Below are positions 1-31,004 of a stretch of 33,808 nucleotides of DNA, one piece after another. Both the position numbers and the translations under genes were made by a program. Position 1 is the stretch's first letter. Every line of letters starts with the position of its first letter. The stretch covers positions 1 to 33,808 of the forward strand of contig JBKCUU010000105.1 of the NCBI GenBank assembly GCA_046318155.1. Direction: 5' to 3'. Under the pieces are notes generated by a model. The model saw only the letters and a program-made list of their open reading frames with translations. It was not told the DNA's origin and did not search any database. The stretch comes from Bdellovibrio sp. (GTDB lineage: Bacteria; Bdellovibrionota; Bdellovibrionia; Bdellovibrionales; Bdellovibrionaceae).

Positions 1-3000
1 CGTTGCTCCAAGACCACCGCCTGTGATGGTTTGTGCCGTTGCTCCTGTCACATCCACAACTGTTGTTCCACTGTAGTTTGTCGTTGTGGCAGAAATGGTC
101 GTCCCAGCTCGCGAGTTAATTGTACCGCCAGTCATCGTCACAGCATAAGCCCCTGTGCCTTGTGCAAAAGTCAACAGCCCACCAGAATTGAGCGTTGCCA
201 TATTTACTGTGATCGCGGCAGCTGGCGCAAAAGTCACCGTGCCAGCGACCGCCGTTGTTCCGGTAAACGTCAAAGTATTGCTGCCACTCAAATTTAATCG
301 AGGAATTGTCTGTGTTGTACCAGCCCCTGCCACAGTTTGAGCATTGCCGCCTGTGACGTCGACAACGCCAGTTCCTGTGTAGGTTGTTGTGGTTGCCGAC
401 AAAGTTGTGCCATTTAAAGAAGTGATTGTTCCGCCTGTAATCGTGGCCGCGACTCCGCCTCCTTGCGCGAAAGTTAAAATACCGTTGGCCCTCAAGTTAG
501 ATGCACCCAAGGTATAAGTTGTTGCTATCGTGGGTGAAAACATAACGTTATTATACGAGACTGTGCCGTTATCTGTGATCGTCGCAGCGGCCCCATTTGT
601 CGCAAAATTCAAAGTCGATCCTGTGACTGAGATTACCCCCGTCGTATAGATATAGTTTCCGGTGATATTTAAGAAGTTTGTAAATGTAACCGCGCCCGCA
701 CTGTTGATTGTCAGGTTTGGCAGCTTGCCTGCTGTCGAAGCAGTCCCCGTGATTGTTTTTGCAGCCGCGCCGGTAACATTGATAACAGTGTTTACGCCTG
801 CAGTTCGCGGCATTCCTAAATTAGTGACGTTGATATTACCTGCGGCATTGATCGTTGCAACGCCAGCAAATGTCGTGGTTCCTGTTCCATCTAAAATTAA
901 GGTTCCGTTGACGGTCATACTGCTTGCGCCAGCCAAAGTATGCGTTAAATTAAGTCCAGTGAAGGTGACGTTGTTAACCATGTTTGCAACTGCCGAAGTA
1001 TAAGTTCCTGTTCGTTGAAAATAAAGGGTCGAGCCCGTCACGGTGAAAGTGCCGGGGGCCGTATTGTAGCTGTATGACATCGGCGTCACACAACCCGAAA
1101 GCACAACGGTGCCGGCGCCGGTTCCGTTGATTTGCAATGCCGGTAGCTGGACACCCGGGCAAACTCCGCCGCTCGTTACGGTTTTTGTTTGTCCTGCGGC
1201 GGGGGCCATCGAAATGATTCCGGTTCCGACGTAGCCATTGCCAGTCGCAGTGACTGTATGCGATCCAGCACCAGTCATCGTGAGCGTCCCAGAGTTAAAA
1301 GTTCCAACCCCGACACTATCACCAATATTTAAATTTCGTGTCACAGAGGCCGTCCCGGTCATGGTGACTGTCGTTGTACCTGCCGTCGTCAGATTCAAGT
1401 TCGAGAAGGCGATCGCGGTTCCGCCACTCACCCTGATTGCAAGCGCTGCACTTGTGGTATTAAACGTCGTTAATCCGGTTGTTGGAGTAAAAGTCGAACC
1501 CGCGGAATAGTTCGGCAAAAAAGAGTTTCCAGAAAAGATATTGGGTCCCGTTCCGCCAATATAGTTACTTCCGCCCGTAACCATGTCAAAAGTATTGCTG
1601 AAGGTAATTGCTGAGCTACATCCGGCGGCGCCAAAGGTATTGGTATTTGCACCTTTTGTCTGGGTAAATGCGCCAGTAAATGTCAGTGATCCGGTTGTGC
1701 AATCAAATAAAATATTTCCGGCAGAGCTATTTAGAGAGGTCGCGCCAGCAACCGTGATGTTGCCCGCTAACCCCCGAAATGAGCCTCCGGTCATGTCCAA
1801 ATTATTGCCAAAAGCCAAAGTGCCTGTACCCGTTGGGCCATTTAAGGTCCCCGCGCTTTGAGTAAAAGCCCCTGTAATTGTATTGGTGCCGCTGCTACCA
1901 AATGACCAGGCCCCACCAGACATCAAAAAGCCCCCGGTGGTCGTCATTGTTCCCGTTGTTGCCGAAACTGTCCCAGAGGTAATATTCACCCCGCCGGTTC
2001 CGATCGCAAGGGTGTTCGCTCCGAGAGAAATCGTGCCCGCATAACTATTAAACAAGTTTATCGAAAGGGCCGTGGCCGCAACATCGATTGTGCAATCGCA
2101 ATTGGGTCCCGTGCATTGGCTTGAATCAAAAACCACCGAGCTTGTCGAGGTTGGAACAGCTCCGCCCGCCCAATTGCCTGGAGTGCTCCACTTGTTATCG
2201 CCGGCCAGACCGGTCCAGTTAAAGCCATATCCGGTGCAGCTTAGAATTCCCCCAGAATTCACAAGGGGGCTCGTCGAAGTTAATGTTCGTGTGTTGCAAA
2301 GAAGCGTTCCGCCATTATTGATTGTCAGAGCAGCAGGAGTTCCTGGGTTGACACTCATGTCACCGCTCATCGTTACGGTTCCGGTGTTGATTGTCATGGC
2401 GCCAATAACATTTGTCTGAGCGGCACCTAAGATCGTGACCAAAGTCCCTGCCGTGGCCTTGTTAACTAACAGCAGTCCATTTGGCAAAAATGTATTTGCC
2501 GAGATCGATGAGGCTGTCCCTGTCAACGTCATTTTAAGCCCGCCCCGTGCGCCTTCGCCGGTGGCGACTATATTTCCGTTTTGCAAAGTCAAAGTCATTG
2601 TGCCTGCTGAATCGACTCTGCAGTTCAGGCCGCAGCCCACGCCTGCACCAAAAGTCACATTTCCGGTGGCCGTTATTGCCGTTAGGCCGCTGAAGGCCAC
2701 GTTATTAAGGCTCGTAATGTTGCCAAAATTAAACACTAAGTTGTTTGGATTAAACATGGTGGTGTTGGTCGTAACCGTCTGCGTCCCGGTGGTCAAAAGC
2801 GTGATTGTTCCTGAGTTGGCCGAAACATTGCCGGCAGCAGTTATATTGGCAATATTGATATTGCCAGAAATTTGAGTGTCTCCACTGCTGAATCGAAAGC
2901 AAGGAGCACTGGGGCAAGACGTCACATTCCATGTTCCTGATAAAGTGAAAGGACCACCGATGGTCCAGCTCCCAGTTCCACCATTAAAGGTTGGCCCCGC

Positions 3001-4167
3001 GGCGAGCCCTCCGCCAATGTTAAAGGTAAAGCCAGTGCTTCCAACCACGTTTGTCGACGTGCCGCCGGCGAAGCTGGCTGCTGCTGTTCCTTGCGTAAAG
3101 CCGCCATTAAAATTGTTCGTTCCAGAAGTTGAGGTGTAAGATCCGCCGCTTAAGGTAAATAATCCTGTTGTCGTCACGGTATGAGTTGTGGTCGAGACCG
3201 CACCGCCGCTTGCGGTCCATGTTCCACCCACATTGAGGGGACCGCCGATTGAAATCGTGCCCGCAGACGTTGCAAGAGCACTGACTCCAGAAAGCGTCGT
3301 TGTTCCCAAGGTCGAGAGCGTTCCAGAGCTGCTAAAACTGACGTTGCCGGCAAATGTTGAAGTGTTCCTAGCTGTTGAAAAACTGCCAGTGCCGCTAATT
3401 GCAGTGGCGCCCGTCACCGCCAAAGTTGATCCAACCGTGTTGCCTCCGGTAAAGGTGCCTCCGGTTTGAGTAATGCCTCCGTTAAAGGTGCCAGAGCCCG
3501 TTGTCGAAATGTAACTTCCCGAAGATAAAGTGAACAGACCTGTCGCGGTCACGGTGGCCGCGTTGGCATTCACTGTTGCACCACTGATCGCAGACGTGCT
3601 TGTTAGGTTTGTGGTGCCGATAAAATTGACGGTGCCGCTAGAGGCAGAAAAAGCACCCAAGGAACTGGAGCCTTTGGTTGTCAAAGTTCCGCCAGATACC
3701 GTCGTGGCGACTAAAGAGTTTGTCGTCGATGATAAAGTCATCGCACCGCCTGTAACCGTCGTTGCTCCGCCAATGGTGACCGAGGCGGCATTGGTAAAAT
3801 CGACCGTGTTCGAGGCTTGTGAATAGGTTCCAGAAATCGCAATGGTGACACCGGCACTTGCGGTGATACTGCTCGTTGCTAACCAATTCGCATCAATGTT
3901 AATTCCAGCAATACTGATATTGGTGTCAATAATTGGGCTGCACCTAAGCACGCTTTGATAACAAATACCGATAAAATTTGCCGTATCGGCAGATCCAGGA
4001 ACAACGCCGCCAGACCAGTTATCAGGATTTGACCAGTTGGAATTAGAACCATTGCCGATCCAAGAGTAGGGCGGGTAGCGAAAGTTTAAGAATACGTTGT
4101 AGGTGGCATCTGCAAAGGTGACGATCGCGATAAAATAAATAGAAAGCGTCAGCAATTTTCTTTTCAT
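1..4167 (-). CDS. Giant secreted Gly/Thr/Ser/Ala/Asn-rich beta-strand-repeat (beta-helix/adhesin-like) protein, >=1389 aa, 3' end beyond window
   Basis: Not in ORF track (no stop in window). Hand translation from ATG 4167: MKRKLLTLSIYFIAIVTFADATYNVFLNFRYPPYSWIGNGSNSNWSNPDNWSGGVVP...; signal-peptide-like N-terminus; AGGTG RBS upstream; the same frame reads open down to base 1 (...VVDVTGATAQTITGGGLGAT). The Val/Pro-rich + strand ORFs here are its antisense shadow. Confidence 0.9.
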   Translation of the reverse strand, partial: MKRKLLTLSIYFIAIVTFADATYNVFLNFRYPPYSWIGNGSNSNWSNPDNWSGGVVPGSADTANFIGICYQSVLRCSPIIDTNISIAGINIDANWLATSSITASAGVTIAISGTYSQASNTVDFTNAASVTIGGATTVTGGAMTLSSTTNSLVATTVSGGTLTTKGSSSLGAFSASSGTVNFIGTTNLTSTSAISGATVNANAATVTATGLFTLSSGSYISTTGSGTFNGGITQTGGTFTGGNTVGSTLAVTGATAISGTGSFSTARNTSTFAGNVSFSSSGTLSTLGTTTLSGVSALATSAGTISIGGPLNVGGTWTASGGAVSTTTHTVTTTGLFTLSGGSYTSTSGTNNFNGGFTQGTAAASFAGGTSTNVVGSTGFTFNIGGGLAAGPTFNGGTGSWTIGGPFTLSGTWNVTSCPSAPCFRFSSGDTQISGNINIANITAAGNVSANSGTITLLTTGTQTVTTNTTMFNPNNLVFNFGNITSLNNVAFSGLTAITATGNVTFGAGVGCGLNCRVDSAGTMTLTLQNGNIVATGEGARGGLKMTLTGTASSISANTFLPNGLLLVNKATAGTLVTILGAAQTNVIGAMTINTGTVTMSGDMSVNPGTPAALTINNGGTLLCNTRTLTSTSPLVNSGGILSCTGYGFNWTGLAGDNKWSTPGNWAGGAVPTSTSSVVFDSSQCTGPNCDCTIDVAATALSINLFNSYAGTISLGANTLAIGTGGVNITSGTVSATTGTMTTTGGFLMSGGAWSFGSSGTNTITGAFTQSAGTLNGPTGTGTLAFGNNLDMTGGSFRGLAGNITVAGATSLNSSAGNILFDCTTGSLTFTGAFTQTKGANTNTFGAAGCSSAITFSNTFDMVTGGSNYIGGTGPNIFSGNSFLPNYSAGSTFTPTTGLTTFNTTSAALAIRVSGGTAIAFSNLNLTTAGTTTVTMTGTASVTRNLNIGDSVGVGTFNSGTLTMTGAGSHTVTATGNGYVGTGIISMAPAAGQTKTVTSGGVCPGVQLPALQINGTGAGTVVLSGCVTPMSYSYNTAPGTFTVTGSTLYFQRTGTYTSAVANMVNNVTFTGLNLTHTLAGASSMTVNGTLILDGTGTTTFAGVATINAAGNINVTNLGMPRTAGVNTVINVTGAAAKTITGTASTAGKLPNLTINSAGAVTFTNFLNITGNYIYTTGVISVTGSTLNFATNGAAATITDNGTVSYNNVMFSPTIATTYTLGASNLRANGILTFAQGGGVAATITGGTITSLNGTTLSATTTTYTGTGVVDVTGGNAQTVAGAGTTQTIPRLNLSGSNTLTFTGTTAVAGTVTFAPAAAITVNMATLNSGGLLTFAQGTGAYAVTMTGGTINSRAGTTISATTTNYSGTTVVDVTGATAQTITGGGLGAT

Positions 4168-4201
4168 TGCTAGCACCTAGCCAAGACTGGCCCGCACTGA
4201 A

Positions 4202-7200
4202 CTATAATCCCGAAACCCAGGAAATGAAACACGTGCCCCCGCCGACGTTCGTGGTGTAAATAATTGTGTAAATCGATCTTGTACCAGATTTGGTCGGAGC
4301 ATTGGCCGGAACAAAAGACGTGGCTGTGCATGAGCCGCCAAAAGTATATGTGCGCGAAGTGGTATCTGCAATGATCAGTGAGTAGGCTCCCCCGCTCGTG
4401 AGACCACTAATCGATAATGCTGCTCCAGAAGCATTTTGCAAAACCTGAACGTTGCCTGTAGAAAAATTAACCGCAGCCGTTGGTCCTGCAATATTATTAT
4501 CGGCAGCGACAATCGCTCCTCCAGAAGAAGCAAGACTTCTGGACGTCACATCACCATCTTTAGTCACAGCCATTCTTTCGACGCCATTGTTTGCAACCGA
4601 AAGCAGCTTAGCGCCAGTCGTGGTGTAGTTCGTCGATGAATTCAGCGTAAAGGCTTTTGCCGATGCGCTGTCTGCCACCGTTGAGGTCATTGTTCCAGCA
4701 GATAAGGTTTGACCCACAAACGTGGGTGAGGCGCCAGAGTGAATATCTTGCGGACCGCTGAGGGTAATGCTGCCAGCACCATTGGAAACTGAAATACGAT
4801 TCGTGGTTCCTGTGATTCCGGCAAGGGTATAGCCTGCGCCGTTTCCGATTGGCAAAAATCCGTTGGTTGCCGTGCTGCCATCAACGCCAGTTCCGCCTTT
4901 AGACGCTGGCACGATTCCGCCAGACCAGGCTCCTGTTGAACTGAGCACGGTAGATCCATTGATCATCAAGTCGCCATCTTTAGTAACAGCTAGTTTTTCG
5001 ACGCTATTGTTTGCAATCGAAAGAAGTTTCGCGCCCGCGTTGGTATAGTTTGTCGAAGTGTTTAGAGTGAAGGCTTTTGCCGTCCCACCATCTGCGACGC
5101 TCGAGGTTGTCTGGCCACTTGTCGTTAGAAGCGATCCATCTTGAACCACAGAGAACCGATCAACACCGTTATTTTGAACAGAAAGAAGGTTTGCCGAGGT
5201 TGTATAAGCAGCCGAGGTGTTTAACGTAAATGCTTTTGCAGCAACGCCATTTGCAACTGTCGAGGTCAGAGTCCCTGCGGACAAAGTTTGACCCATAAAT
5301 GTGGGGGACGCCGTGGCTCGAATATCCTGTGCAGTATCAAGCATGATGCTTCCAGCACCATTTGTGATGGTCACACCCTGATTGGTATTCTGAGTAATGT
5401 TGGCCAAGGTATAGCCAGCGCCATTGCCAATCGGAATTCTTCCATTTGCAGCCGTGCTGCCATCAAATCCTGTTCCGCCTTTAGACGCAGGGACGATTCC
5501 ACCTGACCAGGCCCCTGTTGAGCTGAGCACGGTAGATCCATTGATCATCAAGTCACCATCTTTAGTGACCGCCAGTTTTTCGACGCTGTTGTTTGCAATC
5601 GAAAGAAGTTTGGCCCCTGCGGTGGTGTAGTTCGCTGAAGAGTTCATAGTGAAGGCGACTGCAGTACCACTATTTGCCACATTAGAGGTCATTGTTCCAG
5701 CAGATAAAGTTTGGCCCACAAAAGTCGGAGACGCGCCCGTATGAATATCTTGTGGACCGCTGAGCGTGATCGAACCTGCGCCTGGAGTCACAGTGATTCG
5801 ATTGGCTGTGCCAGCAATGCTGCCGACAACTGGAGCTAAGCCTGTTGAACCGATCAGAAGCTGACCATTTGTCATGACTCCGCCCTCAATAATTGCTCCG
5901 CCACTAGAGACCATGATCTGATTGTTTGTGAGTGCTGTCGTGCTATTTGTCCCACCCCTATTGATCGGAACTGTGTTGAGTGTCAGGGTTCCATTGCTGG
6001 CCAGTGTGGCGGCTCCGCTGATGGCAACTGGAGTGGCAACACTCGAACCATTACCAACCCAAATATTAGCCGTCGCGAGTCCCGTCGATAATTTATTTGA
6101 AAACGTCGTCCAGTCGGCCGAGGTCAGGGCACCCCGACGAGTCGCATCAGCGTTAGGAAGATTAAAAGTATGCGTTGAGGCCGCCGAGCTAATATTGAAA
6201 TCAACTCCAGAAGTTCCTGTCGCAAAAGTTTGCGTGGAGCCCGTTATAGAATTTAGTGACGTCAAACCAGAACCCGCGATTCCAAGCGATTGTGCTGCAG
6301 CCCCATCCCAATATTTGACTTGGCCGGCCGTCGTGTTGAACCAAACTTTACCTTTATCTGTAACTCCAAGTCCCGTGGGATCCGTGGCGACTGCATTGAG
6401 TCCTAGGCTGCCTGTTAAAACATCGCCGGCCTTATTAAGTGGCGTGTATCCAAGAGCCGTTGTGATGTTTGAGGGCGAAAGAGCCGTGATACCTGTGACT
6501 CGTCCTTTTGCATCGACTGTGACATTCGAATAGGCGCCAGCCGTTACGCCGGAGCTTGCAAGTGTCGCCACGCCGGCATTGGACAACGTGACATCACCCG
6601 TGATCGCAACAGGAGCGGCCACGCTGCCGGCGCTTCCGACCCAAACATTGGCAGGTGCTAACGATGCGCCAACTGGCGAAGGACTATTTGCAGCAATTGT
6701 GATGCTACCGGGGCCTGGTGTGATCGAGATTCCAGAGCCTGCGGTGATGCTTGCTGGCACGGGAGCTGAACCCGTTGCTCCAATTAAGATCTGTCCGTTA
6801 CTTAAGACCTGCGAGGTCACCTGAGTGCCAATCGCATTCATCGCAAGAACTCCATTACCTGCTAAGCTCGTCACTCCGGTACCGCCACCAAGAACTGGCA
6901 GTGTGCCCGGAGTTTGGGCCACCCAATTTCCGCCGACAAACGTCAAATACTGACCCGCGGTTGGCACAGCCGTAAAATCAATCGGATATGATTTTAATCT
7001 GTTCACCGAAAGACTTGTATAGCCTCCTGAAACATCACCGCCAAAGGCCGAGTTGCCTTGAATTGCTGTATTGGCTGCTGAGCCATAAGTGACATTGAAA
7101 ACAGGGTCCGTTGCAGTACCTGAATTTGTAAGCCCTGTTCCTGCGGTCGCTGTTTGCACGCTTGAATTGGTATTACTTAGCGTGATCGCGGCACTTCCAT

Positions 7201-8242
7201 TCCAGTATCTTAACGTATTGGTTGTTGAATTGACCCAAACTGTTCCTGTCGCCGCAGCTCCGAGGATGGTCAACGCAGAAATTAAAGGGACTTCTTGAGC
7301 TGTGGTGTATTTGCCTAAGCCTGTCGTCCCTGCCACGGTAACAGAATTCGGAAACGCGACATTTCCCAAGGCACTAATATTGATTGCTGCCGTGGCCCCA
7401 GAATAAATAATTAAACCATTGGTTCCTTCTTGCGCAACAATCGAGGCCCGCCTTGTGGCGCCGCCATAAAAATCAACGGCCGAAGATCCGCCGCCGCCGC
7501 CAATTGCACCCAAACGAATTGTCGGCGAGACCTTTTCGATATGAATATCCGCCAAGGGGCTTGGTAAACCAATCCCCAGTCTTCCCGACGCGCTGGTCGC
7601 AAGTATATTTTGTGTTGTCGAAATATTTCCTGTTACAGAGTTAGACCCATCCGTTCGAAGATAAACAGAATCATGATGATGGAGCGTCGAGGCATCAGTG
7701 CCGTCAACCACGCCCATCAAACGAGCTTGGGTCAGGTTTGGACCTTGGACTTGCAAAATTTGATTGCTTGAGAGGCCATCTAGCATCTGAGCGTTGATCG
7801 CAAAAGGGGCCGCCGCGATCGTCTGCATCCCTGCCATCGGCGTCCCGTCAATAACCAGTTCTAAACGGCGCCAGTCATTCGAGCCCGGAGCATAAAGCCC
7901 AGCGCAAGAGTCTACCAGGGTTAATGTCGGCGAATTGTTGTACACGTTTAAAAAAGTATTTGCCGGACCGGTTGAGTTGGCTGCGGCTCCGAGCATGACC
8001 GAGATCATTCCAAATGAGGTTGGCGTAACAGCTTGAGTCTCTTCGTAAATATAGCAGCTTCCTGCCGGAGGATAGATGCGAAATTTGATGGTGACGGGGT
8101 AGTTAATGGGGTTTCCGCCCGTGTCAGTGATGCGGCCTTGAAATGGAAGAAGCTGTGGAACGCCGCCGCCAGCAAGCCCCACCTGACTGATCAGCAAGAC
8201 GGCAATCTGAAGTAATGACTTCAGCCATCGATTACTGAGCAT
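4202..8242 (-). CDS. Secreted phage-tail-fibre-like trimeric adhesin (Bdellovibrio mosaic adhesive trimer/'cell wall anchor'-like), 1346 aa
   Basis: Signal peptide, then FQGRITD..G.P...V.F.IY.P..SCYIYEE.Q N-domain typical of Bdellovibrio fibre proteins; tail-fibre motifs GVTAGAYSNVTVDAKGRVT, ALGYTPLNKAGD, repeated P..GGTG and HHHD.VY; internal repeats in the C-terminal third. Confidence 0.8.
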   Translation of the reverse strand: MLSNRWLKSLLQIAVLLISQVGLAGGGVPQLLPFQGRITDTGGNPINYPVTIKFRIYPPAGSCYIYEETQAVTPTSFGMISVMLGAAANSTGPANTFLNVYNNSPTLTLVDSCAGLYAPGSNDWRRLELVIDGTPMAGMQTIAAAPFAINAQMLDGLSSNQILQVQGPNLTQARLMGVVDGTDASTLHHHDSVYLRTDGSNSVTGNISTTQNILATSASGRLGIGLPSPLADIHIEKVSPTIRLGAIGGGGGSSAVDFYGGATRRASIVAQEGTNGLIIYSGATAAINISALGNVAFPNSVTVAGTTGLGKYTTAQEVPLISALTILGAAATGTVWVNSTTNTLRYWNGSAAITLSNTNSSVQTATAGTGLTNSGTATDPVFNVTYGSAANTAIQGNSAFGGDVSGGYTSLSVNRLKSYPIDFTAVPTAGQYLTFVGGNWVAQTPGTLPVLGGGTGVTSLAGNGVLAMNAIGTQVTSQVLSNGQILIGATGSAPVPASITAGSGISITPGPGSITIAANSPSPVGASLAPANVWVGSAGSVAAPVAITGDVTLSNAGVATLASSGVTAGAYSNVTVDAKGRVTGITALSPSNITTALGYTPLNKAGDVLTGSLGLNAVATDPTGLGVTDKGKVWFNTTAGQVKYWDGAAAQSLGIAGSGLTSLNSITGSTQTFATGTSGVDFNISSAASTHTFNLPNADATRRGALTSADWTTFSNKLSTGLATANIWVGNGSSVATPVAISGAATLASNGTLTLNTVPINRGGTNSTTALTNNQIMVSSGGAIIEGGVMTNGQLLIGSTGLAPVVGSIAGTANRITVTPGAGSITLSGPQDIHTGASPTFVGQTLSAGTMTSNVANSGTAVAFTMNSSANYTTAGAKLLSIANNSVEKLAVTKDGDLMINGSTVLSSTGAWSGGIVPASKGGTGFDGSTAANGRIPIGNGAGYTLANITQNTNQGVTITNGAGSIMLDTAQDIRATASPTFMGQTLSAGTLTSTVANGVAAKAFTLNTSAAYTTSANLLSVQNNGVDRFSVVQDGSLLTTSGQTTSSVADGGTAKAFTLNTSTNYTNAGAKLLSIANNSVEKLAVTKDGDLMINGSTVLSSTGAWSGGIVPASKGGTGVDGSTATNGFLPIGNGAGYTLAGITGTTNRISVSNGAGSITLSGPQDIHSGASPTFVGQTLSAGTMTSTVADSASAKAFTLNSSTNYTTTGAKLLSVANNGVERMAVTKDGDVTSRSLASSGGAIVAADNNIAGPTAAVNFSTGNVQVLQNASGAALSISGLTSGGAYSLIIADTTSRTYTFGGSCTATSFVPANAPTKSGTRSIYTIIYTTNVGGGTCFISWVSGL
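4555..5760 (-). repeat. Intragenic mosaic repeats in fibre gene (modules A x3, B x4, C x2)
   Basis: QDI..ASPTF.GQTLSAGT.TS x3; AFT.N.S..YT...LLS..NN.V....V..DG x4; a 51-aa block AGAKLLSIANN...PASKGGTG is identical in two copies offset by 582 nt (e.g. 4941 vs 5523). Confidence 0.92.
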
Positions 8243-8801
8243 AGACCGCCCCTAAAGAATGCGTATCGAAGCGAAAAAAACCGTTGGCGCTTGAATTGCC
8301 AGAAATTCCATTATGAATGGCTGACTGATGCCCGCGAAAGATCTCCTGATCCAAATGGGCGGCTGAAACAAAAGTAAGAATTGAACCTGCCGGCGGCAAA
8401 GTAAAGTTAATCGTCACTCTAAATGTTGGACTATACTGATTGTTGACAGACCTCGAGCGGACGTAAACTTTGATCTGACCTGTTATCGCCATTGCGGGCA
8501 AGGTGTAGCTCGAGTTCACGCAGCCTGGGGAAGAATCTGTCCAGCTTGAGTTATCGTATGAGTATTGCAGCGAAGCTGCGCTTTGATCACAAGTTCCTGT
8601 CACCGTATAGGTTTGAACTGTCGTTGAAATTGTTCCGCCATTACTAGCACCCGTGATCGTGGGACCTTTCAACTCAATCAAGTCTTGAGCGGTCGGATCC
8701 GGCGACTGCAACGAACACGCGGGTAGCCATCCAATTGCTGCAAAAAGAATCAGCCTCTTGAAGCTCGTTTCGGTGTTCGAAAAAATCCTTAAAGATTTCA
8801 T
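8232..8801 (-). CDS. Putative lipoprotein with Ig-like/beta-sandwich region, first gene of fibre operon
   Basis: Likely start ATG 8801 (MKSLRIF...); lipobox-like WLPA-C; Thr/Ser-rich beta pattern (TYTVTGTCD, LQYSYDNSSW, IKVYVRS) with two further Cys; 3' end overlaps the fibre gene start by 11 nt. Confidence 0.7.
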   Translation of the reverse strand: MKSLRIFSNTETSFKRLILFAAIGWLPACSLQSPDPTAQDLIELKGPTITGASNGGTISTTVQTYTVTGTCDQSAASLQYSYDNSSWTDSSPGCVNSSYTLPAMAITGQIKVYVRSRSVNNQYSPTFRVTINFTLPPAGSILTFVSAAHLDQEIFRGHQSAIHNGISGNSSANGFFRFDTHSLGAVYAQ

Positions 8802-8808
8802 AACTATA

Positions 8809-8836
8809 AGATCGGAAGGGCGACTCCAAGAATTGA
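8809..8836 (-). promoter_or_regulatory. Putative sigma-28 (FliA)-like promoter
   Basis: TCAA-N16-TCCGATCT on the minus strand, ending 7 nt before ATG 8801; resembles TAAA-N15-GCCGATAA; no SD upstream of that ATG. Confidence 0.4.
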
Positions 8837-12913: not shown

Positions 12914-13357
12914 TTATGTCCGCTCAACAACAACCTGGATGGTTGCCTCGAGGCCTTCGCCCATTTTGATCGAAGCTTTGTGTGTCCCCAAAACTTTGAT
13001 TTGCTCTTCCAGGTGGATGTCACGTCGGTCAATCGAGAATCCCGCTTTTTCAAGCTCACGAGAAATGTCAGAGGTCGTGATCGAACCAAAAATTTTATCA
13101 GTATCAGCTGCGGCCATTTTGAACTTCACAGATGTTCCGCTGATTTTAACCAAGGTCCCTTTGCGCTCTTCAATTGCCTTTTTCTTTTTTGATTCAGCAA
13201 CGGCCTTTAAGTGTTCCCATTGTTTTGCTTTTTTCTCGGTCGCCTCTTCAGCCAACTTGCGAGGAAAAAGAAAGTTTCGAGCAAATCCGGCCGAAACATT
13301 AACCACTTCGCCAGTTTTACCCACATCTTTAACGTCTTTATTCAGAATAACTTTCAT
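12914..13357 (-). CDS. rplI: 50S ribosomal protein bL9
   Basis: [26 protein letters not shown]-domain; KIFGSIT..DI and IK.LG.H C-domain; 147 aa. Confidence 0.98.
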
Positions 13358-14286
13358 ACATGTTCCTTATTGTTTTGGTCTTTTTCAGGCAGCGAATTCC
13401 CTCTCATCCGTCGTCTAAAATCAACCCAGTAATCGACAAGGCCAACCAGGCTCAGCAGGAAAAAGAGCTGGCCAACCACAAATACATAAATCAGCAATCG
13501 AATTAGAAAGCCGACGCGATAATGCGCAAACGCACTTTCTAAAACTGCGAGTCCTTGAAAAAAGTAGGCGCCGACCATCACGTTAAAAACATTCAACGCG
13601 ACAACAGAAACCCAAGGGTTGTCCATTTTCAAGAAGCTGAGCAAAAACGAGAACATCGCAACCCAAACCATAAAGTCGGGCATTCGGAACTCAAGCAAGC
13701 GGATTCCTGCGGCCGCTCGCTCAAATCGAAGTCCTGCTAAAAAAGCCACTCGGCGGTCCAAAATCAAGGCGAATGCCAACGAGCTCAAAACCAAAATTGC
13801 CATCATGGATGGGAGCTGGTTAATCAAGAACTGGGCATCGATCTTGACTCCCGAGAGCCAAGACGAGGGTTCTTTTGTCGACGGCATCTGCTTGAGAATG
13901 TTGTCCAAGCTTTGATGCAAGATTTCATTCAGATTGATCCCCGTCCACTGAAGCAGAAGCCAAGGTCCTACAACAGACAGAACGGTTCCCAGGAAGACAG
14001 ACCAGAAAGCGGCCGCAAAGCCAGCCTTTCCGCGATCTTCAAACTCCCCATAGACACCGATACAGACCCATATGCCGATGAGCAAAAAGGCAATGGGACC
14101 GAGCCCTAACATTGCGAGCACAAATGTCGCAACGGCTCCTGATGTCCAGTAAAGAGTCGCGCCCCCAACGTTTCGAAGGACTCGAAGCAGTGGTGCCCCC
14201 AAGAACGAAAACAAAATCGTCACGACGGCAGCCAGTGCTGTCAGGGCGATAAGTTTTTTCTTCGAGGCGGGCCGGATTATCGTCAT
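13354..14286 (-). CDS. DUF2232 (YybS-like) integral membrane protein
   Basis: Multiple TM segments, YFFQGLAV and [13 protein letters not shown]-terminal motifs; canonical position upstream of rplI with 4-nt overlap. Confidence 0.88.
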
Positions 14287-14357
14287 GGAGATGTTCTCTC
14301 TTAACTTTTAAAATTTTTCTTAAATACAAAATCAAAGGCAAAGATCAAAAGCGAAGA

Positions 14358-14900
14358 TTAGTACTCGCCTTTGCCACCGCGGTCACCACGGTCACCGCGG
14401 TCACCACGATCGCCTCTGTCGCCACGATCGCCACGATCGCCGCGGTCAAAACCGCCGCCACCCTCGCGAGCCGCTGCGAAAGCCGCACGACGTGCTTGAG
14501 CTTTTGCTTCGCGCTCTTTTTCGCGGTTTGCAGACTCGGTCAGGCCTTTTTTGAACGCCTCGAGGTACTTCGCCAATGAGGTGCGGGTGTCGAGTTTGCC
14601 GTGCATGAAACGCAAAACTTTGTCGTTGATGCGCATGGTCCGCTCGATCTCCATGATCGCAGCCGGTTGTGATTCAAACAACGCATGGAAGTAGATTCCT
14701 TTTTTTAGCTTGCCGATGGGATTTGCAAGTGTGCGTTTTCCCCAAGTTTCCAAAGAAAAGACGGATCCTTTGAAATTTGAGATGATGCTTTTGTTCTTAG
14801 TGAACAATGCTTTTTGCTCTTCGAGAGTTGCGTCGGGATGCATGATCACGACGACTTCAAAAGGGCGCTTCTGGTCTTGCGACCGTTCTACTGTAGCCAT
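14358..14900 (-). CDS. rpsF: 30S ribosomal protein bS6 with long C-terminal extension
   Basis: RPFEVVVIMHPD, ETWGKRTLANPI.K..KGIY, EIERTMRINDKVLRF; 180 aa including a charged helix and (DRG)8 tail. Confidence 0.97.
   Translation of the reverse strand: MATVERSQDQKRPFEVVVIMHPDATLEEQKALFTKNKSIISNFKGSVFSLETWGKRTLANPIGKLKKGIYFHALFESQPAAIMEIERTMRINDKVLRFMHGKLDTRTSLAKYLEAFKKGLTESANREKEREAKAQARRAAFAAAREGGGGFDRGDRGDRGDRGDRGDRGDRGDRGGKGEY
14376..14447 (-). repeat. 9-bp tandem repeat x8 encoding (Asp-Arg-Gly)8
   Basis: Plus strand accgcggtc accacggtc accgcggtc accacgatc gcctctgtc gccacgatc gccacgatc gccgcggtc; variation is synonymous. Confidence 0.97.
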
Positions 14901-17850: not shown

Positions 17851-19488
17851 TTATCGAAAGGCGGCCTTTGTGACATCAAAACCATAGCCCTCGACTGAAT
17901 CGTCCGAAGTAAAAACGATGCGAACGTAATCGCCAGAGATCGCCGGCGAGTAGGAGTCATTGTAGTTCCCAGACATTTCGGCCACCTTGTTTCCCGCACG
18001 GTCGTACAACGTGACTTTGTCATAGTTTTTTTCAGTCTCAAATCGCGAAAAGTAGAGCGCGACTTCTTTAGCGCCGGGAACATCAAGCTCAAAAATCTCT
18101 TTGGTTTTTTTTCCGTAAGGATGAGCCGAAGAAACCGAAACCGCCTTGCTTGCCCACTGTGCGGGATCATTCATATCCGGAGGGGTCACCACGTTGGCCA
18201 AAGCATTGTACGCGCTACTGAGGCCGCCGGTTTTTGTTTTGCCGACCAAGGCGGGGATTCGGCGCGCAGTCGACATGATTCGTTCCTTCATCTCAACGCC
18301 TGTAAGGCTGGGCTCGCTTGCAGCGAGCAGGCCTGCGATACCCGAAACATGAGGCGTTGCCATTGAAGTTCCCGACCAAGAATCATAGCCGCCGCCAACC
18401 ACAGCACTGTAGACGTTGACGCCTGGAGCGCCGACGTGAACTGTTTTCTTGCCGTAGTTCGAAAATGAGGCCAGGTTTCCGCGATTATCGATGGCAGCGA
18501 CCGTCAAGATATTCGGAACTTCGTAGTTGGCGGGGTATGTCGGTGACGAGTCATTATTGCTCCCATCATTGCCTGCCGCCGCGACAAACAGTGTACCGGC
18601 GGCGTTCGAGCGCTCGATGGCTTCTTTCAAAGTTTGCGAAAATCCGCCGCCGCCCCAAGAGTTGCTTAAGATTTTTGCGCCCATTTTCGTTGCGTAATCA
18701 ATCGCAAGAATCGCGCCCTCAAGAGATCCGCCGCCATCAGCACCTAGAAACTTGATCGGCATAATACGAACATTCCAGTTCAGTCCGACAATGCCACGGC
18801 CATCATCACCGCGTGCGCCTATGACACCAGAGCAATGCGAACCATGACCATGATCATCGAGGCCGTTGGCCACTGGTTTTGAAGCTTCAGTAAAGTTCAT
18901 TCCATGCACATCATCAACGTAACCATTGTTATCGTCGTCAACGCCGGCCAAGCCGTTCAATTCAACTTCGTTTACCCACACATTATCTTTTAAGTCCGGA
19001 TGGTTGTAATCAACGCCGGTATCAATGACCGCGATGACCACGCTCGATGAGCCCGTCGAGATGTCCCAAGCTTTTTCAGCGTCAACATCAAGGCCCTTCA
19101 ATCCAGAGTGGTTTTCGGAGTCCGCTTGACCGACATTCCGAAGACCCCACAAGTTTCCAAGCAGGGGGTCGTTCGGAGTGCGGTTGATTCGATAAATATA
19201 GTTGGGCTCAGCTATTTCAACCAGAGGGTTGAGGCTGAGAGTATTGACTGAGTACGCGCTGTTTTCGATAACGGGTCGCTTAACAACGACAATGTTTTGC
19301 CCAGGAATCGAACTTTTCACAAGGGCGCCTAGTTTTTGGCTGAGCGATTGAGCTGAAAACTTCTGAACAGAAACGTCCCCACGAAGCTTAACGACAAACT
19401 CTCCTGGGACCGCTTCTGGCTGAGCCGCAAGAGCTGAAAAACTAATCAAGCTCAAAAAAACAAATAGACTTCTTCCGTGAATCCCCAT
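17851..19488 (-). CDS. Secreted S8 subtilisin-like serine protease with propeptide and C-terminal CUB-like domain
   Basis: Signal peptide; VPGEFVVK propeptide; triad VIDTG / HGHGSHCSG / SGTSMATPH; oxyanion AAGN; C-terminal HPY...F.RFETEKNYDKV.LYD...F.SD.SV...GF; AAGGAG RBS. Confidence 0.95.
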   Translation of the reverse strand: MGIHGRSLFVFLSLISFSALAAQPEAVPGEFVVKLRGDVSVQKFSAQSLSQKLGALVKSSIPGQNIVVVKRPVIENSAYSVNTLSLNPLVEIAEPNYIYRINRTPNDPLLGNLWGLRNVGQADSENHSGLKGLDVDAEKAWDISTGSSSVVIAVIDTGVDYNHPDLKDNVWVNEVELNGLAGVDDDNNGYVDDVHGMNFTEASKPVANGLDDHGHGSHCSGVIGARGDDGRGIVGLNWNVRIMPIKFLGADGGGSLEGAILAIDYATKMGAKILSNSWGGGGFSQTLKEAIERSNAAGTLFVAAAGNDGSNNDSSPTYPANYEVPNILTVAAIDNRGNLASFSNYGKKTVHVGAPGVNVYSAVVGGGYDSWSGTSMATPHVSGIAGLLAASEPSLTGVEMKERIMSTARRIPALVGKTKTGGLSSAYNALANVVTPPDMNDPAQWASKAVSVSSAHPYGKKTKEIFELDVPGAKEVALYFSRFETEKNYDKVTLYDRAGNKVAEMSGNYNDSYSPAISGDYVRIVFTSDDSVEGYGFDVTKAAFR

Positions 19489-25877: not shown

Positions 25878-26708
25878 ATGGCAGCAAAATCAGTTTCGGT
25901 TCTTTTTTCAGCTCTGGTGATGTTCTCTGGATGCATTGCTTTTGCGCAGGCAAACAAAGATCAGGCCGTTGCGGTCGTTGGAACAAAAAAAATTACGGTT
26001 GAAGAGTTTAACCGCAAATTTAACGAAGTCCGAAACATGGCGGTGAATCCTCCGACAAAAAGCCAATTTCTTGAGGACCTTGTCCGATATGAGCTCGGTG
26101 TCCAAGAAGCTGAACGCCGCAATCTCGAAAAAGATCCCATCGTTCAAGACCGAATGAAACAAGAGCTTTACAAGGCCTTGCTCGAAAAAGAGCTCGCTGA
26201 CCGAGTCAACAAAATCACTGTCAACGACAAAGAGATGGAAGCTTACTACAAAAAAAACCCCGAAATTCGCACGTCGCATATTTTGATCGAGCTCAAGCCC
26301 GGCGCAACACCCGAACAAAAAGCCGAGGCCCGCAAGCGCGCGAGCGAGATCTACGAAGAAGTTAAAAAATCAAAGCGCCCCTTCGAAGAGCTGGTTCGTT
26401 TGTACTCGGACGATCCCCTCACAAAGCAAACGGGCGGCGACGTTGGTTACCAGAGCCGCGTGACTCTTGTGCCCTCCTATTACGATGCCATTTTAGCAAT
26501 GAAAGTCGGCGAGATTCGCGGTTTAATCGATACTCCTTTTGGTTTTCATATTTTGAAAGTCACGGGCCGACGCTCCTTCGATAACTCGAACAAACGTCAG
26601 CTCCGCGCGGCCGTCTTTGATGAAAAGCGCAAAGGGGTTTTTAACGAATACTTCGAGAAATTGAAAAAGAGCTACAAGATTCAAACGAATCCAGGCTTGA
26701 TTCAGTAG
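25878..26708 (+). CDS. Periplasmic parvulin (PpiC-type) peptidyl-prolyl isomerase
   Basis: Signal peptide; IRTSHILI, FEELVRLYSDD, GGDVGY, TPFGFHILK. Confidence 0.92.
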   Translation: MAAKSVSVLFSALVMFSGCIAFAQANKDQAVAVVGTKKITVEEFNRKFNEVRNMAVNPPTKSQFLEDLVRYELGVQEAERRNLEKDPIVQDRMKQELYKALLEKELADRVNKITVNDKEMEAYYKKNPEIRTSHILIELKPGATPEQKAEARKRASEIYEEVKKSKRPFEELVRLYSDDPLTKQTGGDVGYQSRVTLVPSYYDAILAMKVGEIRGLIDTPFGFHILKVTGRRSFDNSNKRQLRAAVFDEKRKGVFNEYFEKLKKSYKIQTNPGLIQ

Positions 26709-26726
26709 GCTTAGCAGAGGACACCT

Positions 26727-27704
26727 GTGCGACGTTCATTTCTTCGAGGCCCCGCTCTCTGGCTGGGGCTTTTGATTTTGATGAGTTTGTCTTCCTGTAC
26801 TTCCAAAAAAAGTCAGGTCGCCAACCTTCCCGTTTTGCAAGTAAATGACCAGACCCTAACCGCGCAGGCTTTTAGCGACCGTCTCGCCCGCAAGCTCAAA
26901 CAGTTTGATGCGCTCTCGGCCAAGGACCCTAACAACTTAAGTCGAACCAAAGAGGAAGTCTTAAGAAACTACACGCTTGAGGCTCTTATTTCCGATTTTG
27001 CTCGAGCCCACTCGATTACAGTCAGCGATCAAGAGCTCGAAAATGAGGTCAATGCGTTTCGCTCGACCTACCCGGATGACGTCGCCTTTCGTAATGTGCT
27101 GGCCGAAGAGAGCCTCTCGCTGACGTCATGGCGCGAACAGCTCTCGCTGACGCTCCTTGAGCGAAAAGTGTTTCACAAAATATCTGAAAAAGTCGAGAAA
27201 CCGACGCTCGATGAAATGAAGAAGTACTACGAGGAAAACAAGGATAAATACCGGCGCAAAGAGCGGGTCTATCTGCGCCAAATCGTGTCGGACGACTTGA
27301 CGAAGGCAACTGAGCTGCGAGAAGAAGTTAAAAAGAAGGATTTTGCCAAAACTGCGACCAAGTTTTCAGTCGCTCCGGAGAGTAAAAATGGGGGCTTGGT
27401 GGGCTGGATTGAGCGCGGATCGGTGGATATTTTTGACAAGGCCTTTCAAATGCCGGTCGGCGGCGTGAGTCAAGTCCTCGAAAGCCCCTATGGATTTCAC
27501 ATTCTAAAGGTTGAGCGCAAAGCGCCTGCTGGTTTTGCGACTCTTGAAGAGGTAAAACCAATGTTAGAACAGGCGCTTATGGCGCAAAAAGAACAAGGCG
27601 AGTTCACGGCCTGGTTGGACCGCCAGATCCGCACCAGCCGAGTTTTGCGAAACCAGGACCTGATCCGTTCGATCAGCGTTGAAACCCGAAAGGGGAACGA
27701 ATGA
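26727..27704 (+). CDS. Lipoprotein parvulin PPIase/foldase (PrsA/SurA-like)
   Basis: Lipobox LSS-C; helical chaperone region; VYLRQIV, FAKTATKFS, GGLVGW, SPYGFHILK. Confidence 0.9.
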   Translation: MRRSFLRGPALWLGLLILMSLSSCTSKKSQVANLPVLQVNDQTLTAQAFSDRLARKLKQFDALSAKDPNNLSRTKEEVLRNYTLEALISDFARAHSITVSDQELENEVNAFRSTYPDDVAFRNVLAEESLSLTSWREQLSLTLLERKVFHKISEKVEKPTLDEMKKYYEENKDKYRRKERVYLRQIVSDDLTKATELREEVKKKDFAKTATKFSVAPESKNGGLVGWIERGSVDIFDKAFQMPVGGVSQVLESPYGFHILKVERKAPAGFATLEEVKPMLEQALMAQKEQGEFTAWLDRQIRTSRVLRNQDLIRSISVETRKGNE

Positions 27705-28675
27705 GGTTTTTAAGTTCGATCTTATGTACGGCTGTGATGACGCTGACTTTAAGTTCGCCGGCATTTGCCGCGCGTGAAAAAGTTGAAGGCATTGTTGCCA
27801 TCGTCAACTCTGAGATCGTCACCGAATCGGAAGTTCGCGCTTTTGCCAAAAAAGTCGAGAACGAAGCCATTATCGATGATTTGCTTTTACTGGGCGCTAC
27901 TCCACAATCTTTAAAGGCAAACAGAAAAGCGCAGCTTGATTACCTCATTAATGAAAAGTTGCTCGAGTCGGAGATCAAGCGCCTGAATTTATCCGTCACC
28001 GTCGAGCGCGTTGAACAAGAGCTCCGGGACGTTGCCAAAAAGAACAACATTTCGCGCGCCGAGCTTAACAACGCCATCAAGGCGCAGGGCATGAATTTTT
28101 CTGATTACCAGGACTTTGTTAAGGGGCGTATTGAGCGTCAGTCTCTGATCGAACAAGAGATCACATCTAAAATTCGCGTGTCCGATGAAGAGGTCTTGGC
28201 TGAGTATACAAAAATGCATCCCAACGCAGACTCTGGAATTTTTGAGTACACGGTTGCACACATTCTTTTTAACCCACGCAAAGGCGGGGTTGCCGGCGCC
28301 GAACAACGCGCAAGAGGCGTTTTAAAAAAACTCAAAGACGGACAGGTTTTCGAGACCTTGGCCGAACAGCACTCGGAAGATACGGGTTTTACGAATGGCG
28401 GATTGCTGGGCAGCTTTAAAGCCGGCGAGTTTTCGCGCGAGATGGAAACCGCCGTGGCTCGCCTTAGTCCTGGCGACACAACCGAAATTATAGAATCAAA
28501 AGCCGGACTTCATATATTAAAACTCATTTCAAAAAAAGTAGTCTCGGATCCGCGTTTCGAACGCGAAAAAGAAAAAATAAGAAATCAGCTTTTTGAAAAG
28601 GCCTTTGCGAAGCAGCTCCGTAACTGGCTCGAGCAAAAGAAAGAAGATTCTTTCATTCGAATCAATGAAGCATGA
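27701..28675 (+). CDS. surA: SurA-like chaperone/PPIase with a single parvulin domain
   Basis: VEGIVAIVNSEIVTESE SurA N-domain; VAHIL, FETLAEQHSED, GGLLG, GLHILK; directly upstream of pdxA as in surA-pdxA operons. Confidence 0.8.
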   Translation: MRFLSSILCTAVMTLTLSSPAFAAREKVEGIVAIVNSEIVTESEVRAFAKKVENEAIIDDLLLLGATPQSLKANRKAQLDYLINEKLLESEIKRLNLSVTVERVEQELRDVAKKNNISRAELNNAIKAQGMNFSDYQDFVKGRIERQSLIEQEITSKIRVSDEEVLAEYTKMHPNADSGIFEYTVAHILFNPRKGGVAGAEQRARGVLKKLKDGQVFETLAEQHSEDTGFTNGGLLGSFKAGEFSREMETAVARLSPGDTTEIIESKAGLHILKLISKKVVSDPRFEREKEKIRNQLFEKAFAKQLRNWLEQKKEDSFIRINEA

Positions 28676-29634
28676 GCGCTCTAAAAAAAATTGTTATCAC
28701 GACGGGTGACCTTGACGGGATTGGCCTTGAAGTCACCGCAAAGGCTCTAGGAAAATTAGGCCCTCAGCGGGGTCTCCAGTTCTATTACTTCCGGGGTCTA
28801 AAATCACCCCCGAGCCTACTTCGCAAGATCGGGCGCAAGTTTAAGGTGAGGCGGTTTCGCTCTTGGCCTGAGGCTTTGGAGTACGAACCAAAATCGTACA
28901 AAGAGATCATCGAGATCACGTCGGCACAGCCTCCGCCAAAGTGGGTGGAAAACGCAGCCGTTTCTGCCTTTCACAAAAAAATTGATGCCTTAGTGACGGG
29001 CCCGCTTTCAAAGCCCGAGATTATGCGCTCGGGCCTCAAGGATCTGGGGCACACCGAAATTTTAAAGCGTATCACCAAAGTCTCAAACTTGTGGATGACA
29101 TTTCTGGGAAAAAAATTTCATGTGTTGTTACTCTCTGGGCATATGCCTGTTCACAGAGCCGAGGAATACCTAACTCCTGAGCGCATCGAAGCTGGCGTGC
29201 GCGAAGCTGCCAAGCTTTTTAGGCCTAGCCCAAAAAGGCCGCTCGCGGTTTTGGGTCTGAACCCGCACGCCGGTGATTCGGGCCTGATCGGCGAGTTCGA
29301 CGGTGATGTCTTGCTACCAGTTCTTGAAAAGCTGCGCGCAGAGGAGCTTGCCATTGTGGGACCACTTGTTCCTGATGCAGCTTTTCACCCCGACAATTGG
29401 AAAAAATATTCGGCCTATGTGTGTTGTTATCACGACCAAGGCCTGATTCCGTTTAAAATGATCCATGGTTTTGAGTCTGGCGTCCACATCACGGCGGGAC
29501 TTCCGTTTGTGCGAACTTCGGTCGACCATGGTACCGCTCAAGATATTTTTGGAAAAAACAAAGCCGACGCGCGCTCCATGATTCAGGCGATTAAAGCCGC
29601 ACAAAACCTCGTGTTGTCAGAGAAAGGGATTTAG
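28672..29634 (+). CDS. pdxA: 4-hydroxythreonine-4-phosphate dehydrogenase
   Basis: ITTGD.DGIG.E, VTGPLSK, GHTE, GLNPHAG, YHDQGLIPFK, RTSVDHGTA.DI. Confidence 0.95.
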   Translation: MSALKKIVITTGDLDGIGLEVTAKALGKLGPQRGLQFYYFRGLKSPPSLLRKIGRKFKVRRFRSWPEALEYEPKSYKEIIEITSAQPPPKWVENAAVSAFHKKIDALVTGPLSKPEIMRSGLKDLGHTEILKRITKVSNLWMTFLGKKFHVLLLSGHMPVHRAEEYLTPERIEAGVREAAKLFRPSPKRPLAVLGLNPHAGDSGLIGEFDGDVLLPVLEKLRAEELAIVGPLVPDAAFHPDNWKKYSAYVCCYHDQGLIPFKMIHGFESGVHITAGLPFVRTSVDHGTAQDIFGKNKADARSMIQAIKAAQNLVLSEKGI

Positions 29635-29636
29635 AT

Positions 29637-31004
29637 ATGTATCAACCCGTTATTTTTCGCGAGTACGACATTCGAGGTGTTTACAACGAACAATTCGACA
29701 AGGACTTTGCCTACCTACTCGCCAAATCCTATGCCCAGTACATGGTGCAAAAATTGGGAAAAAAGAATCCAACGATTGCGCTCGGTCATGATGCCCGCAT
29801 CTCGGGGCTCGAGATCAAAGCCAGCCTTTCAAAAGGTCTGCAAGAGTGCGGTGTCAAAGTTTTGTATGTGGGACTTGTGACCTCGCCGATCTCTTACTTC
29901 ACCACTTTTGACATTCCAGGTGTTGATGGGGCGTTCATGGTTACGGGTTCGCACAATCCACCCGAGTACAATGGTTTTAAAATTTCTGTCGGCAAAGGCA
30001 CAATCTTTGGCGAAGAGATTCAAGAACTTCGCCGGATTATGGAAAAGGGTGTTTTTCCTGAGGGCAGGGGTTCTGAAGAAAAAATTGACATCTTCCCGCA
30101 ATACCTCGCCCGTTATAAAAAAGAGTTCGGCGAGATGAAGCCAATCAAAGTGGTCTTGGATTGTGGAAACGGGGCCGCGGGTTGCATCACGCGCCGCCTT
30201 TTTGAAGTTGTGGGACTAAAGCCCACCATTCTTTTTGAAGAACCAGATGGAAATTTTCCGAACCACCACCCCGACCCCACGGTTGAAAAAAATTTGGTCG
30301 ATTTAAAAAAGCAGGTTCTTAAAGAAGGGGCCGTCGTTGGAATCGGTTTTGACGGAGACGCCGACCGCATCGGGTTGGTCGATCATACTGGGCGCATGAT
30401 ATATGGTGATGAACTGATGGTTTTAATCAGTCGTGATGTTTTGAAGCACAATCAGGGTGCAAAAATTATCGGCGACGTGAAGTGCTCGGACCGCCTGTTT
30501 GACGACATCAAGAAAAATGGCGGAGAGCCCGTCATGTGGAAAACAGGCCATTCGTTAATTAAAGAAAAAATCAAAGTTGAAAAGGCGCCCTTTGGCGGTG
30601 AGATGAGTGGTCATATTTTCTTTGCTGATCGAAACTATGGTTATGATGATGCGCTCTATGCGGCCTTGCGAGTTTGTGAAATTCTTTCAAGAACCAACAA
30701 AACGATCCCCGAGCTTTTAAGCGGACTTCCTGTCGCCTACAATACTCCAGAACTTCGTATTGATACGACTGAGGAGAAGAAAGTGGCTATCGTCGAAAAA
30801 CTGAAGGCCGCTTTTCCCGCAGGATCAAGGGAGTACGCCCTCAACCTGATTGATGGTGTTCGCATCAGCTTTGCAGACGGCTGGGCTCTCGCACGAGCCT
30901 CAAATACTCAACCCGTTCTTGTTTTGCGATTTGAAAGCGAAACCGAGGCCGGTTTAGAAAGAATTCGCGGACAAATTGAGTCCATTGTGAACCCGCTTTT
31001 GTAG
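29637..31004 (+). CDS. Phosphomannomutase/phosphoglucomutase (AlgC-like)
   Basis: FREYDIRG, TGSHNP (phosphoserine), DGDADR, GEMSGH, RASNTQP. Confidence 0.95.
   Translation: MYQPVIFREYDIRGVYNEQFDKDFAYLLAKSYAQYMVQKLGKKNPTIALGHDARISGLEIKASLSKGLQECGVKVLYVGLVTSPISYFTTFDIPGVDGAFMVTGSHNPPEYNGFKISVGKGTIFGEEIQELRRIMEKGVFPEGRGSEEKIDIFPQYLARYKKEFGEMKPIKVVLDCGNGAAGCITRRLFEVVGLKPTILFEEPDGNFPNHHPDPTVEKNLVDLKKQVLKEGAVVGIGFDGDADRIGLVDHTGRMIYGDELMVLISRDVLKHNQGAKIIGDVKCSDRLFDDIKKNGGEPVMWKTGHSLIKEKIKVEKAPFGGEMSGHIFFADRNYGYDDALYAALRVCEILSRTNKTIPELLSGLPVAYNTPELRIDTTEEKKVAIVEKLKAAFPAGSREYALNLIDGVRISFADGWALARASNTQPVLVLRFESETEAGLERIRGQIESIVNPLL

Follow-up and report, generated by a model that had tools for sequence, protein, structure and literature searches.

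How is a mosaic adhesive trimer (MAT) fibre of Bdellovibrio held on the cell, and what does it carry at its outer end? These questions are raised by three genes at one end of contig JBKCUU010000105.1 from a Bdellovibrio sp. assembly (GCA_046318155.1; 2.75 Mb and 95% complete, with freshwater metagenomes as its best-matching public runs); the window that we analysed is this entire contig (C105), 33,808 nucleotides (nt) in length. All three genes lie on the minus strand: a lipoprotein gene (8801-8232; 189 amino acids [aa] from its ATG, lipobox LPA-C29), a MAT fibre gene (8242-4202; 1,346 aa, non-S74, with a Sec signal and a mosaic shaft rich in Gly, Thr, Ala, and Ser), and a gene for a giant protein that runs from an ATG at 4167 to the window edge (1..4167; 1,389 aa in the window), its frame continuing into contig C26. 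The tight packing described in an earlier reading of the letters alone (here, the sequence-only reading) is exact, with an overlap of 11 nt between lipoprotein and fibre genes and a gap of 34 nt between fibre and giant genes, and the export signals that it assigned to all three products were seen again by eye and with one simple self-made rule; all signal peptides in this work were called in these two ways, and the rule is crude, with miscalls in both directions.

The sequence-only reading had taken fibre, lipoprotein, and giant for partners in a single apparatus. The two pairings within it, a lipoprotein gene before a MAT gene and a secreted gene after this type of tip, are each recurrent, and the three-gene order recurs in another genus (genome G006), but the fixed units are two separable pairings rather than all three genes together, and the giant is just one among many interchangeable followers. 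We consider it probable that the three products assemble outside the cytoplasm into a three-part adhesin, in which the tail of the lipoprotein holds the base of the fibre and a peptide of the giant docks on its tip. Fibre, lipoprotein, and giant would each cross the inner membrane separately, and the fibre would trimerise outside the cytoplasm; its base, the MAT N-terminal domain, would bind the C-terminal tail of a surface-displayed lipoprotein and so be held on the cell, and the first dozen mature residues of the giant would insert at the tip trimer, extending the fibre with a long adhesive rod able to bind prey or surfaces. The head would be exchangeable, with base and tip constant.

Secreted genes downstream of the fibre tip

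The case for a docked head begins with what lies downstream of fibre genes. One set, chosen by the MAT N-domain, comprised 87 genes in 80 regions (87 of 103 matches, after removal of own-genome, G006, G007, and short contig-edge rows), and a second comprised 90 loci chosen by the tip. A single rule was applied to both alike: open ends, runs of N, loci with less than 500 nt downstream, duplicate ends, and non-tip frames shorter than 350 aa were dropped, and a follower was defined as a co-oriented gene with a Sec-like signal whose start lies within -45 to +80 nt. Of the 81 tip genes 53 have a direct secreted follower, whereas among MAT genes that end otherwise the figure is 7 of 60. The same contrast is seen with one gene drawn per genome (about 42/64 versus 2/22), in the set chosen by the N-domain (5/10 versus 7/59), and across the nine genomes that hold both kinds (7/14 versus 2/15); the genomes are related, so that p-values for these comparisons overstate. 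Some tip genes that lack a direct follower have a head upstream or at a distance of one gene (L179, L193, L201, and L202).

The bodies of the followers are mutually unrelated. Among 22 direct followers that were scanned, we found glycine-rich, RCC1, LamG, DUF5122, SBBP, kelch, DUF1554, TSP1, Lcl_C, and immunoglobulin (Ig)/Calx families, or no family at all; propellers are also represented, and the N-terminal domain of the giant is common to five directly following genes. The proposed docking peptide of the giant, its 12 mature N-terminal residues (TYNVFLNFRYPP; 4069..4104, minus strand), contains four aromatic residues and no acidic one, and at least four aromatics are present in the 12-residue mature start of 1.2% of 257 control proteins. 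Follower proteins as a group hold 1.68 aromatic and 0.36 acidic residues in their first 12 mature positions, against 0.84 and 1.42 for 257 predicted secreted proteins of the own genome. One peptide type, YYNLGAF, heads bodies of three kinds (glycine-rich, RCC1, and SBBP), and conversely the peptides differ among proteins with the body type of the giant. With 5 of the 53 followers removed by eye as miscalls, peptide similarity follows tip similarity weakly over 806 pairs with unrelated bodies (rho 0.106, 55 of 2,000 permutations); no such tracking is seen for the signal peptides (996 of 2,000 permutations). Leaders of twin-arginine-like appearance, recognised by eye, occur on some followers (L224, L226, and L254, the last from the cultured B. 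bacteriovorus strain Bd16, CP168971.1, which carries a tip-plus-follower pair); they suggest that some heads may be exported folded, in which case head and fibre would meet after export.

The same N termini could be read differently, with the tip binding the follower peptide as a temporary carrier, from which cargo would pass to prey or to the medium, or with the peptide serving as a secretion signal. MAT proteins relocate during invasion, according to the available text of PMC10769870; a loosely conserved hydrophobic N terminus could be a sorting signal; and there is no secretion pore gene in the window, as the sequence-only reading had reported, or among the next genes on C26. However, the families identified among followers have binding or scaffold folds and include no enzymes, and peptide type does track tip type, albeit weakly; we regard a temporary carrier as improbable and return to the docked head.

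The tip as a candidate socket

The proposed socket is a C-terminal beta-sandwich of ~100 aa (4205..4504, minus strand) with a predicted fold at a pLDDT (predicted local distance difference test) of 93. Within the order, 108 of 301 genomes contain relatives of it, which number 1,440 clusters at E <=0.001. In all 150 of the 150 best library matches the tip lies <=10 aa from the C terminus, and 71 of those also carry the MAT N-domain; the records holding the closest tips belong to Oligoflexia, Pseudobdellovibrionaceae, and Bdellovibrio. Two matched tip stretches are present in 12 of the same 150, and in L064 (from G192:C12) a fibre has a second, internal tip-like copy that is a possible side-branch site. 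A tip-ended gene lacking the MAT N-domain and followed by a secreted LamG-like gene (L252:2479-4147) lies in a record titled Limnohabitans, and the tip-follower pair may extend beyond Bdellovibrionota.

Among solved structures, the tip is closest in fold to spike and baseplate domains of phages, all of them weak matches at Z <8 (range, 7.5 to 5.4). They include the Pa223 capsid spike (Z 7.5, root mean square deviation 2.9, 90 residues aligned), Solidus gp83 (Z 6.2), and residues 79-180 of CBA120 TSP4 (Z 5.6), which correspond to XD1; with Foldseek the best E value was 0.035 and that of T4 gp9 was 0.35, and no MAT structure was among the matches listed. Identification of the tip with the docking domain XD2 was considered and rejected, as the domain boundaries place the TSP4 match in XD1. 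Sequence searches of the PDB with the fibre, the tip, and a tip profile returned chance-level matches only. In the ESM Atlas the tip scores 0.96 by features against viral clusters, 39 to 47% of whose members carry PF26209 (Phage_phiTE_241_C, a putative phage tail fibre C-terminal domain), a likeness of feature score without an alignment; we know of no docking role for this family. Among 34 tips, one matched each of two unnamed PHROGs families (E 0.005). Of 38 candidate tip relatives in viral contigs none was confirmed, and none was found in GenBank phages, so that the link to phages consists of Atlas and fold leads only. The supplementary tables of other MAT tips in PMC10769870 may already list this tip.

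The lipoprotein as a proposed anchor

The lipoprotein has its lipobox cysteine at C29, a likely Ig-like middle domain (TM 0.46-0.58 to Ig-like structures in the ESM Atlas), and a C-terminal tail of ~50 aa (8235..8390, minus strand), predicted from tail alignments, in which it is a divergent member, to form a double beta-hairpin; this tail is the proposed binder of the MAT N-domain. A hairpin-type tail, recognised by eye, is present in the gene upstream of MAT in 18 of 25 best-per-genome loci, including this one, and homologues of the lipoprotein stand before MAT genes in genomes G006 and G007. Among the 87 MAT loci, a lipobox open reading frame (ORF) lies upstream in 33 by rule, and the same hairpin tail was recognised by eye in ~27, on otherwise unrelated bodies of ~65-240 aa. 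A search of 41 genomes with a tail profile had 27 matches, spread over 17 genomes and including 15 training sequences; it missed the tail of the window lipoprotein in the own genome (G000), which was the top match of a local search at E 0.002, a circular result. The lipoprotein sequence retrieved only itself among 87 candidates, and its ESM Atlas feature matches were all <=0.80. A second MAT gene of the own genome (L044; G000:C76:7083-8570), cut by the contig end, has no lipoprotein upstream.

In the Discussion of Caulton et al. (2024; PMC10769870), as available, the MAT N-domain would bind an unidentified surface element, and no MAT anchor is named in the available text of that paper, of a 2026 review (PMC13689555), or of PMC12034629. 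The text of one of the two Caulton supplements has no match for lipoprotein, neighbour, or operon, and neither a MAT anchor nor a plug-in MAT head was described in the literature searched, which did not extend to most subscription papers.

Objections and rival readings

A number of observations weigh against the three-part adhesin. Both interfaces, tail to base and peptide to tip, are proposed from sequence patterns and analogy. With respect to the head, 28 of the 81 tip genes have no direct follower, and several of these have no head nearby; relatives of the giant are found away from any fibre (L049 and L054) and as a lipoprotein (L052); and the peptide has no single consensus and covaries weakly with the tip, in a set of related genomes and with signal peptides called by a crude rule. 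The fold matches of the tip are weak and point to XD1 of T4 gp9/gp10 and CBA120 TSP4, not to the jelly-roll docking domains XD2 and XD3, and the fold also occurs in CpaA and StcE. XD1 is regarded as a spacer of unclear function by the authors who described it (PMC8825819, available text), and thus the tip fold does not prove a socket.

These observations would suit a tip that is a self-sufficient binding or trimer-capping domain, with the giant an independent secreted adhesin, co-regulated simply as part of a cluster of surface proteins, and the lipoprotein perhaps still an anchor. Such a tip would account for the third or so of tip genes without a follower, for giant relatives that occur alone, and for a fold like that of a spacer domain and of domains in CpaA and StcE, and solved non-S74 MAT tips are themselves adhesive according to the available text of PMC10769870. 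It leaves unexplained, however, the specificity of followers to this tip (53/81 versus 7/60) and the aromatic N terminus common to followers that are otherwise unrelated, and an independent giant has no barrel, lipid, or membrane segment to explain how it stays on the cell. We judge this explanation unlikely. A similar peptide opens some of the lone giant relatives (L049 and L053), which might act in trans.

With respect to the anchor, the lipoprotein adjoins a minority of the 47 fibres that bear the tip, 9 when counted by rule and about 7 by eye, and just 2 of the 20 MAT genes of the complete genome G010. Six of the 12 non-training matches to the tail profile were examined; four are stand-alone short lipoproteins with no MAT gene within 1.5 kb, one follows a gene that ends like an S74 MAT, and one is at a contig edge. 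The absence of a neighbouring lipoprotein from most MAT genes would be in keeping with a periplasmic assembly or export factor rather than a permanent anchor, or with a tail that binds the giant. Yet the conserved part is just a short tail, constant on spacers of differing length and type, which fits a tether, and tail-bearing lipoproteins precede MAT genes of every tip type, even those without followers; we hold both of these alternatives to be very improbable. If the tail is an anchor, lone tail-bearing lipoproteins could serve MAT genes that have no lipoprotein neighbour.

The giant protein

The first 141 nt of the window are identical to the last 141 nt of contig C26, on which the frame of the giant adds 334 residues and then reaches a stop, giving a total of at least 1,723 aa. 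Base 142 is exactly where contigs with the C26 end from other samples part from the window sequence; at least one repeat of ~102 aa has therefore probably collapsed in assembly, and the giant is likely to be longer. The autotransporter barrel that would have told against the sequence-only reading was not found: this remainder has no barrel family in NCBIfam and is repeat-like in sequence up to the stop, and the autotransporter reading was rejected. Its earlier description as a beta-repeat protein is plausible from its composition (Thr 20%, Gly 16%) and from repeats that are 72% identical near its end; a profile of the N-terminal 300 aa matched 0 PDB sequences at E <=1. A beta-helix may be supposed from the repeats. 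Tandem Repeats Finder and self-BLAST returned no rows, although the repeats are visible in the sequence. No two-partner secretion (TPS) domain was matched in the giant in Pfam or NCBIfam, and TpsB had no match among the neighbours scanned, the rest of the genome not having been searched for it.

Overlapping the stop of the giant on C26 is a gene for a membrane-anchored protein of 176 aa (L001:18353-18883, minus strand), which is weakly similar to the N-terminal half of a DsbA/thioredoxin protein encoded beside another giant-type follower (L184; 23%, E 0.002); in L179, a gene resembling it (22%, E 0.19) separates the fibre gene from the follower. The protein is possibly a folding or disulphide helper whose thioredoxin half has been lost here. 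Two convergent genes (L001:15843-18348, plus strand) encode proteins of 181 and 651 aa with no Pfam match, the larger of which appears by eye to have fibronectin-type repeats and a C-terminal barrel; similar-looking genes are found near tip fibres in L188.

The fibre and a candidate promoter

The assignment of the fibre to the MAT proteins was correct: residues 22-165 (7748..8179, minus strand) match NCBIfam Bdello_MAT_N (NF053851) at 84.5 bits, above the cut-off of 60, and trimer formation would be expected by analogy with that family. In Pfam, 0 families were found for lipoprotein, fibre, and giant. Of 41 related genomes 29 contain relatives of the N-domain, a single complete genome accounting for 20 matches, and proteins sharing it end in S74, in this tip, or in other domains. 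A capping-loop-like motif is located at residue 222. An S74-type MAT was considered and rejected, as the S74 chaperone-protease motif SDxxxK is absent from the last 250 aa, where Pfam likewise gave no match. Elsewhere (L151-L153; G029:C1:199465-242467), five or more giant MAT genes form a cluster in which followers accompany the tip-ended genes but not the S74-ended genes.

The three genes had been placed behind a sigma-28-like promoter. The candidate, TCAAT-N16-CCGATC (8810..8836, minus strand), stands 8 nt before the lipoprotein ATG and agrees with the Bdellovibrio FliA consensus, TTAAG-N16-CCGATA (PMC3627812, available text), at 8 of 11 bases, but it does not by itself exceed chance: a pattern fitted to the site occurs twice in the window, where 0.61 occurrences would be expected, and two are also reached in 12 of 100 shuffles. 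The hexamer CCGATA is enriched 10-30 nt before start codons in the own genome and lies just upstream of 12 of the 20 MAT genes of G010, versus 27 of 956 background windows; for the two closest lipoprotein genes, 170-200 nt of upstream sequence contained no exact copy of the hexamer. No sigma-70 site was found upstream on the minus strand, and the E. coli sigma-28 pattern did not single out the promoter-like site. FliA control of the locus is plausible from these motifs. Terminator-like matches numbered 4, against 6.7 expected.

Comparison with known systems

The closest described proteins are the non-S74 MATs of B. bacteriovorus, Bd2133 and Bd1334 (Caulton et al., 2024; PMC10769870, available text), which share with the present fibre a signal peptide, an N-domain of ~130 aa, a mosaic shaft, a capping-loop-like motif, and a C-terminal beta-sandwich tip in place of S74. 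In the MATs described there the adhesive tip is part of the same chain, whereas here a second gene likely supplies the head. In a crystal contact the tip trimer of Bd2133 had a single peptide bound, an observation that is no more than suggestive.

In phages T2, T6, and S16, the trimeric fibre gp37 bears a separately encoded adhesin head, gp38. The present locus is similar in that a head gene of variable body lies adjacent to and downstream of the fibre gene, and glycine-rich heads are among the followers; it differs in being a cell-surface system with Sec or twin-arginine translocation export and heads of many unrelated folds, and the likeness drawn here is one of gene arrangement. For docking of a peptide on a domain, second receptor-binding proteins of phages offer a precedent (PMC6872550, available text). 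The branched receptor-binding systems of K1-5, G7C, KP32, and CBA120 (PMC6872550 and PMC8825819, in the text available) resemble the proposed joint in the short N-terminal peptide on the second protein and the small beta domain on an anchored trimer, and the tip weakly resembles a gp9/gp10 domain; in contrast, the resemblance here is to XD1 and not to XD2 or XD3, the domain is far C-terminal, and the system is bacterial. Like type V autotransporter and two-partner passengers, the giant is long, rich in Thr, Gly, and Asn, and likely built of beta-helix repeats, but it has no barrel and no Pfam or relevant NCBIfam match, and no transporter gene was present among the neighbours examined.

Other genes in the window

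The remainder of the window includes a run of rpsF, a DUF2232 membrane gene, and rplI (12914-14900), with rpsR unlisted at the 80-aa ORF cut-off; a secreted subtilase with a C-terminal CUB domain (17851-19488); and, in a housekeeping context, three tandem SurA/PPIase (peptidyl-prolyl isomerase) genes followed by pdxA and a phosphomannomutase gene (25878-31004).

Implications

Beyond this locus, we put forward more tentatively, as a possibility that falls a little short of probable, a general plug-and-socket platform of Bdellovibrionota, in which the lipoprotein tail would be the anchor of MAT fibres and the widespread tip would accept any secreted protein whose start is a short aromatic peptide, including heads encoded elsewhere in the genome. 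If the arrangement is true, surface-binding heads could be swapped without rebuilding the fibre, and the range of prey or surfaces could change through the gain, loss, or switching of small head genes at a joint shared with phage tail fibres. An anchor would be named for MAT fibres, whose hold on the cell is a stated open question in the available text of PMC10769870. There would also be a second layer of prey-recognition diversity that is missed by single-gene annotation, and many secreted proteins that now lack annotation would be heads.

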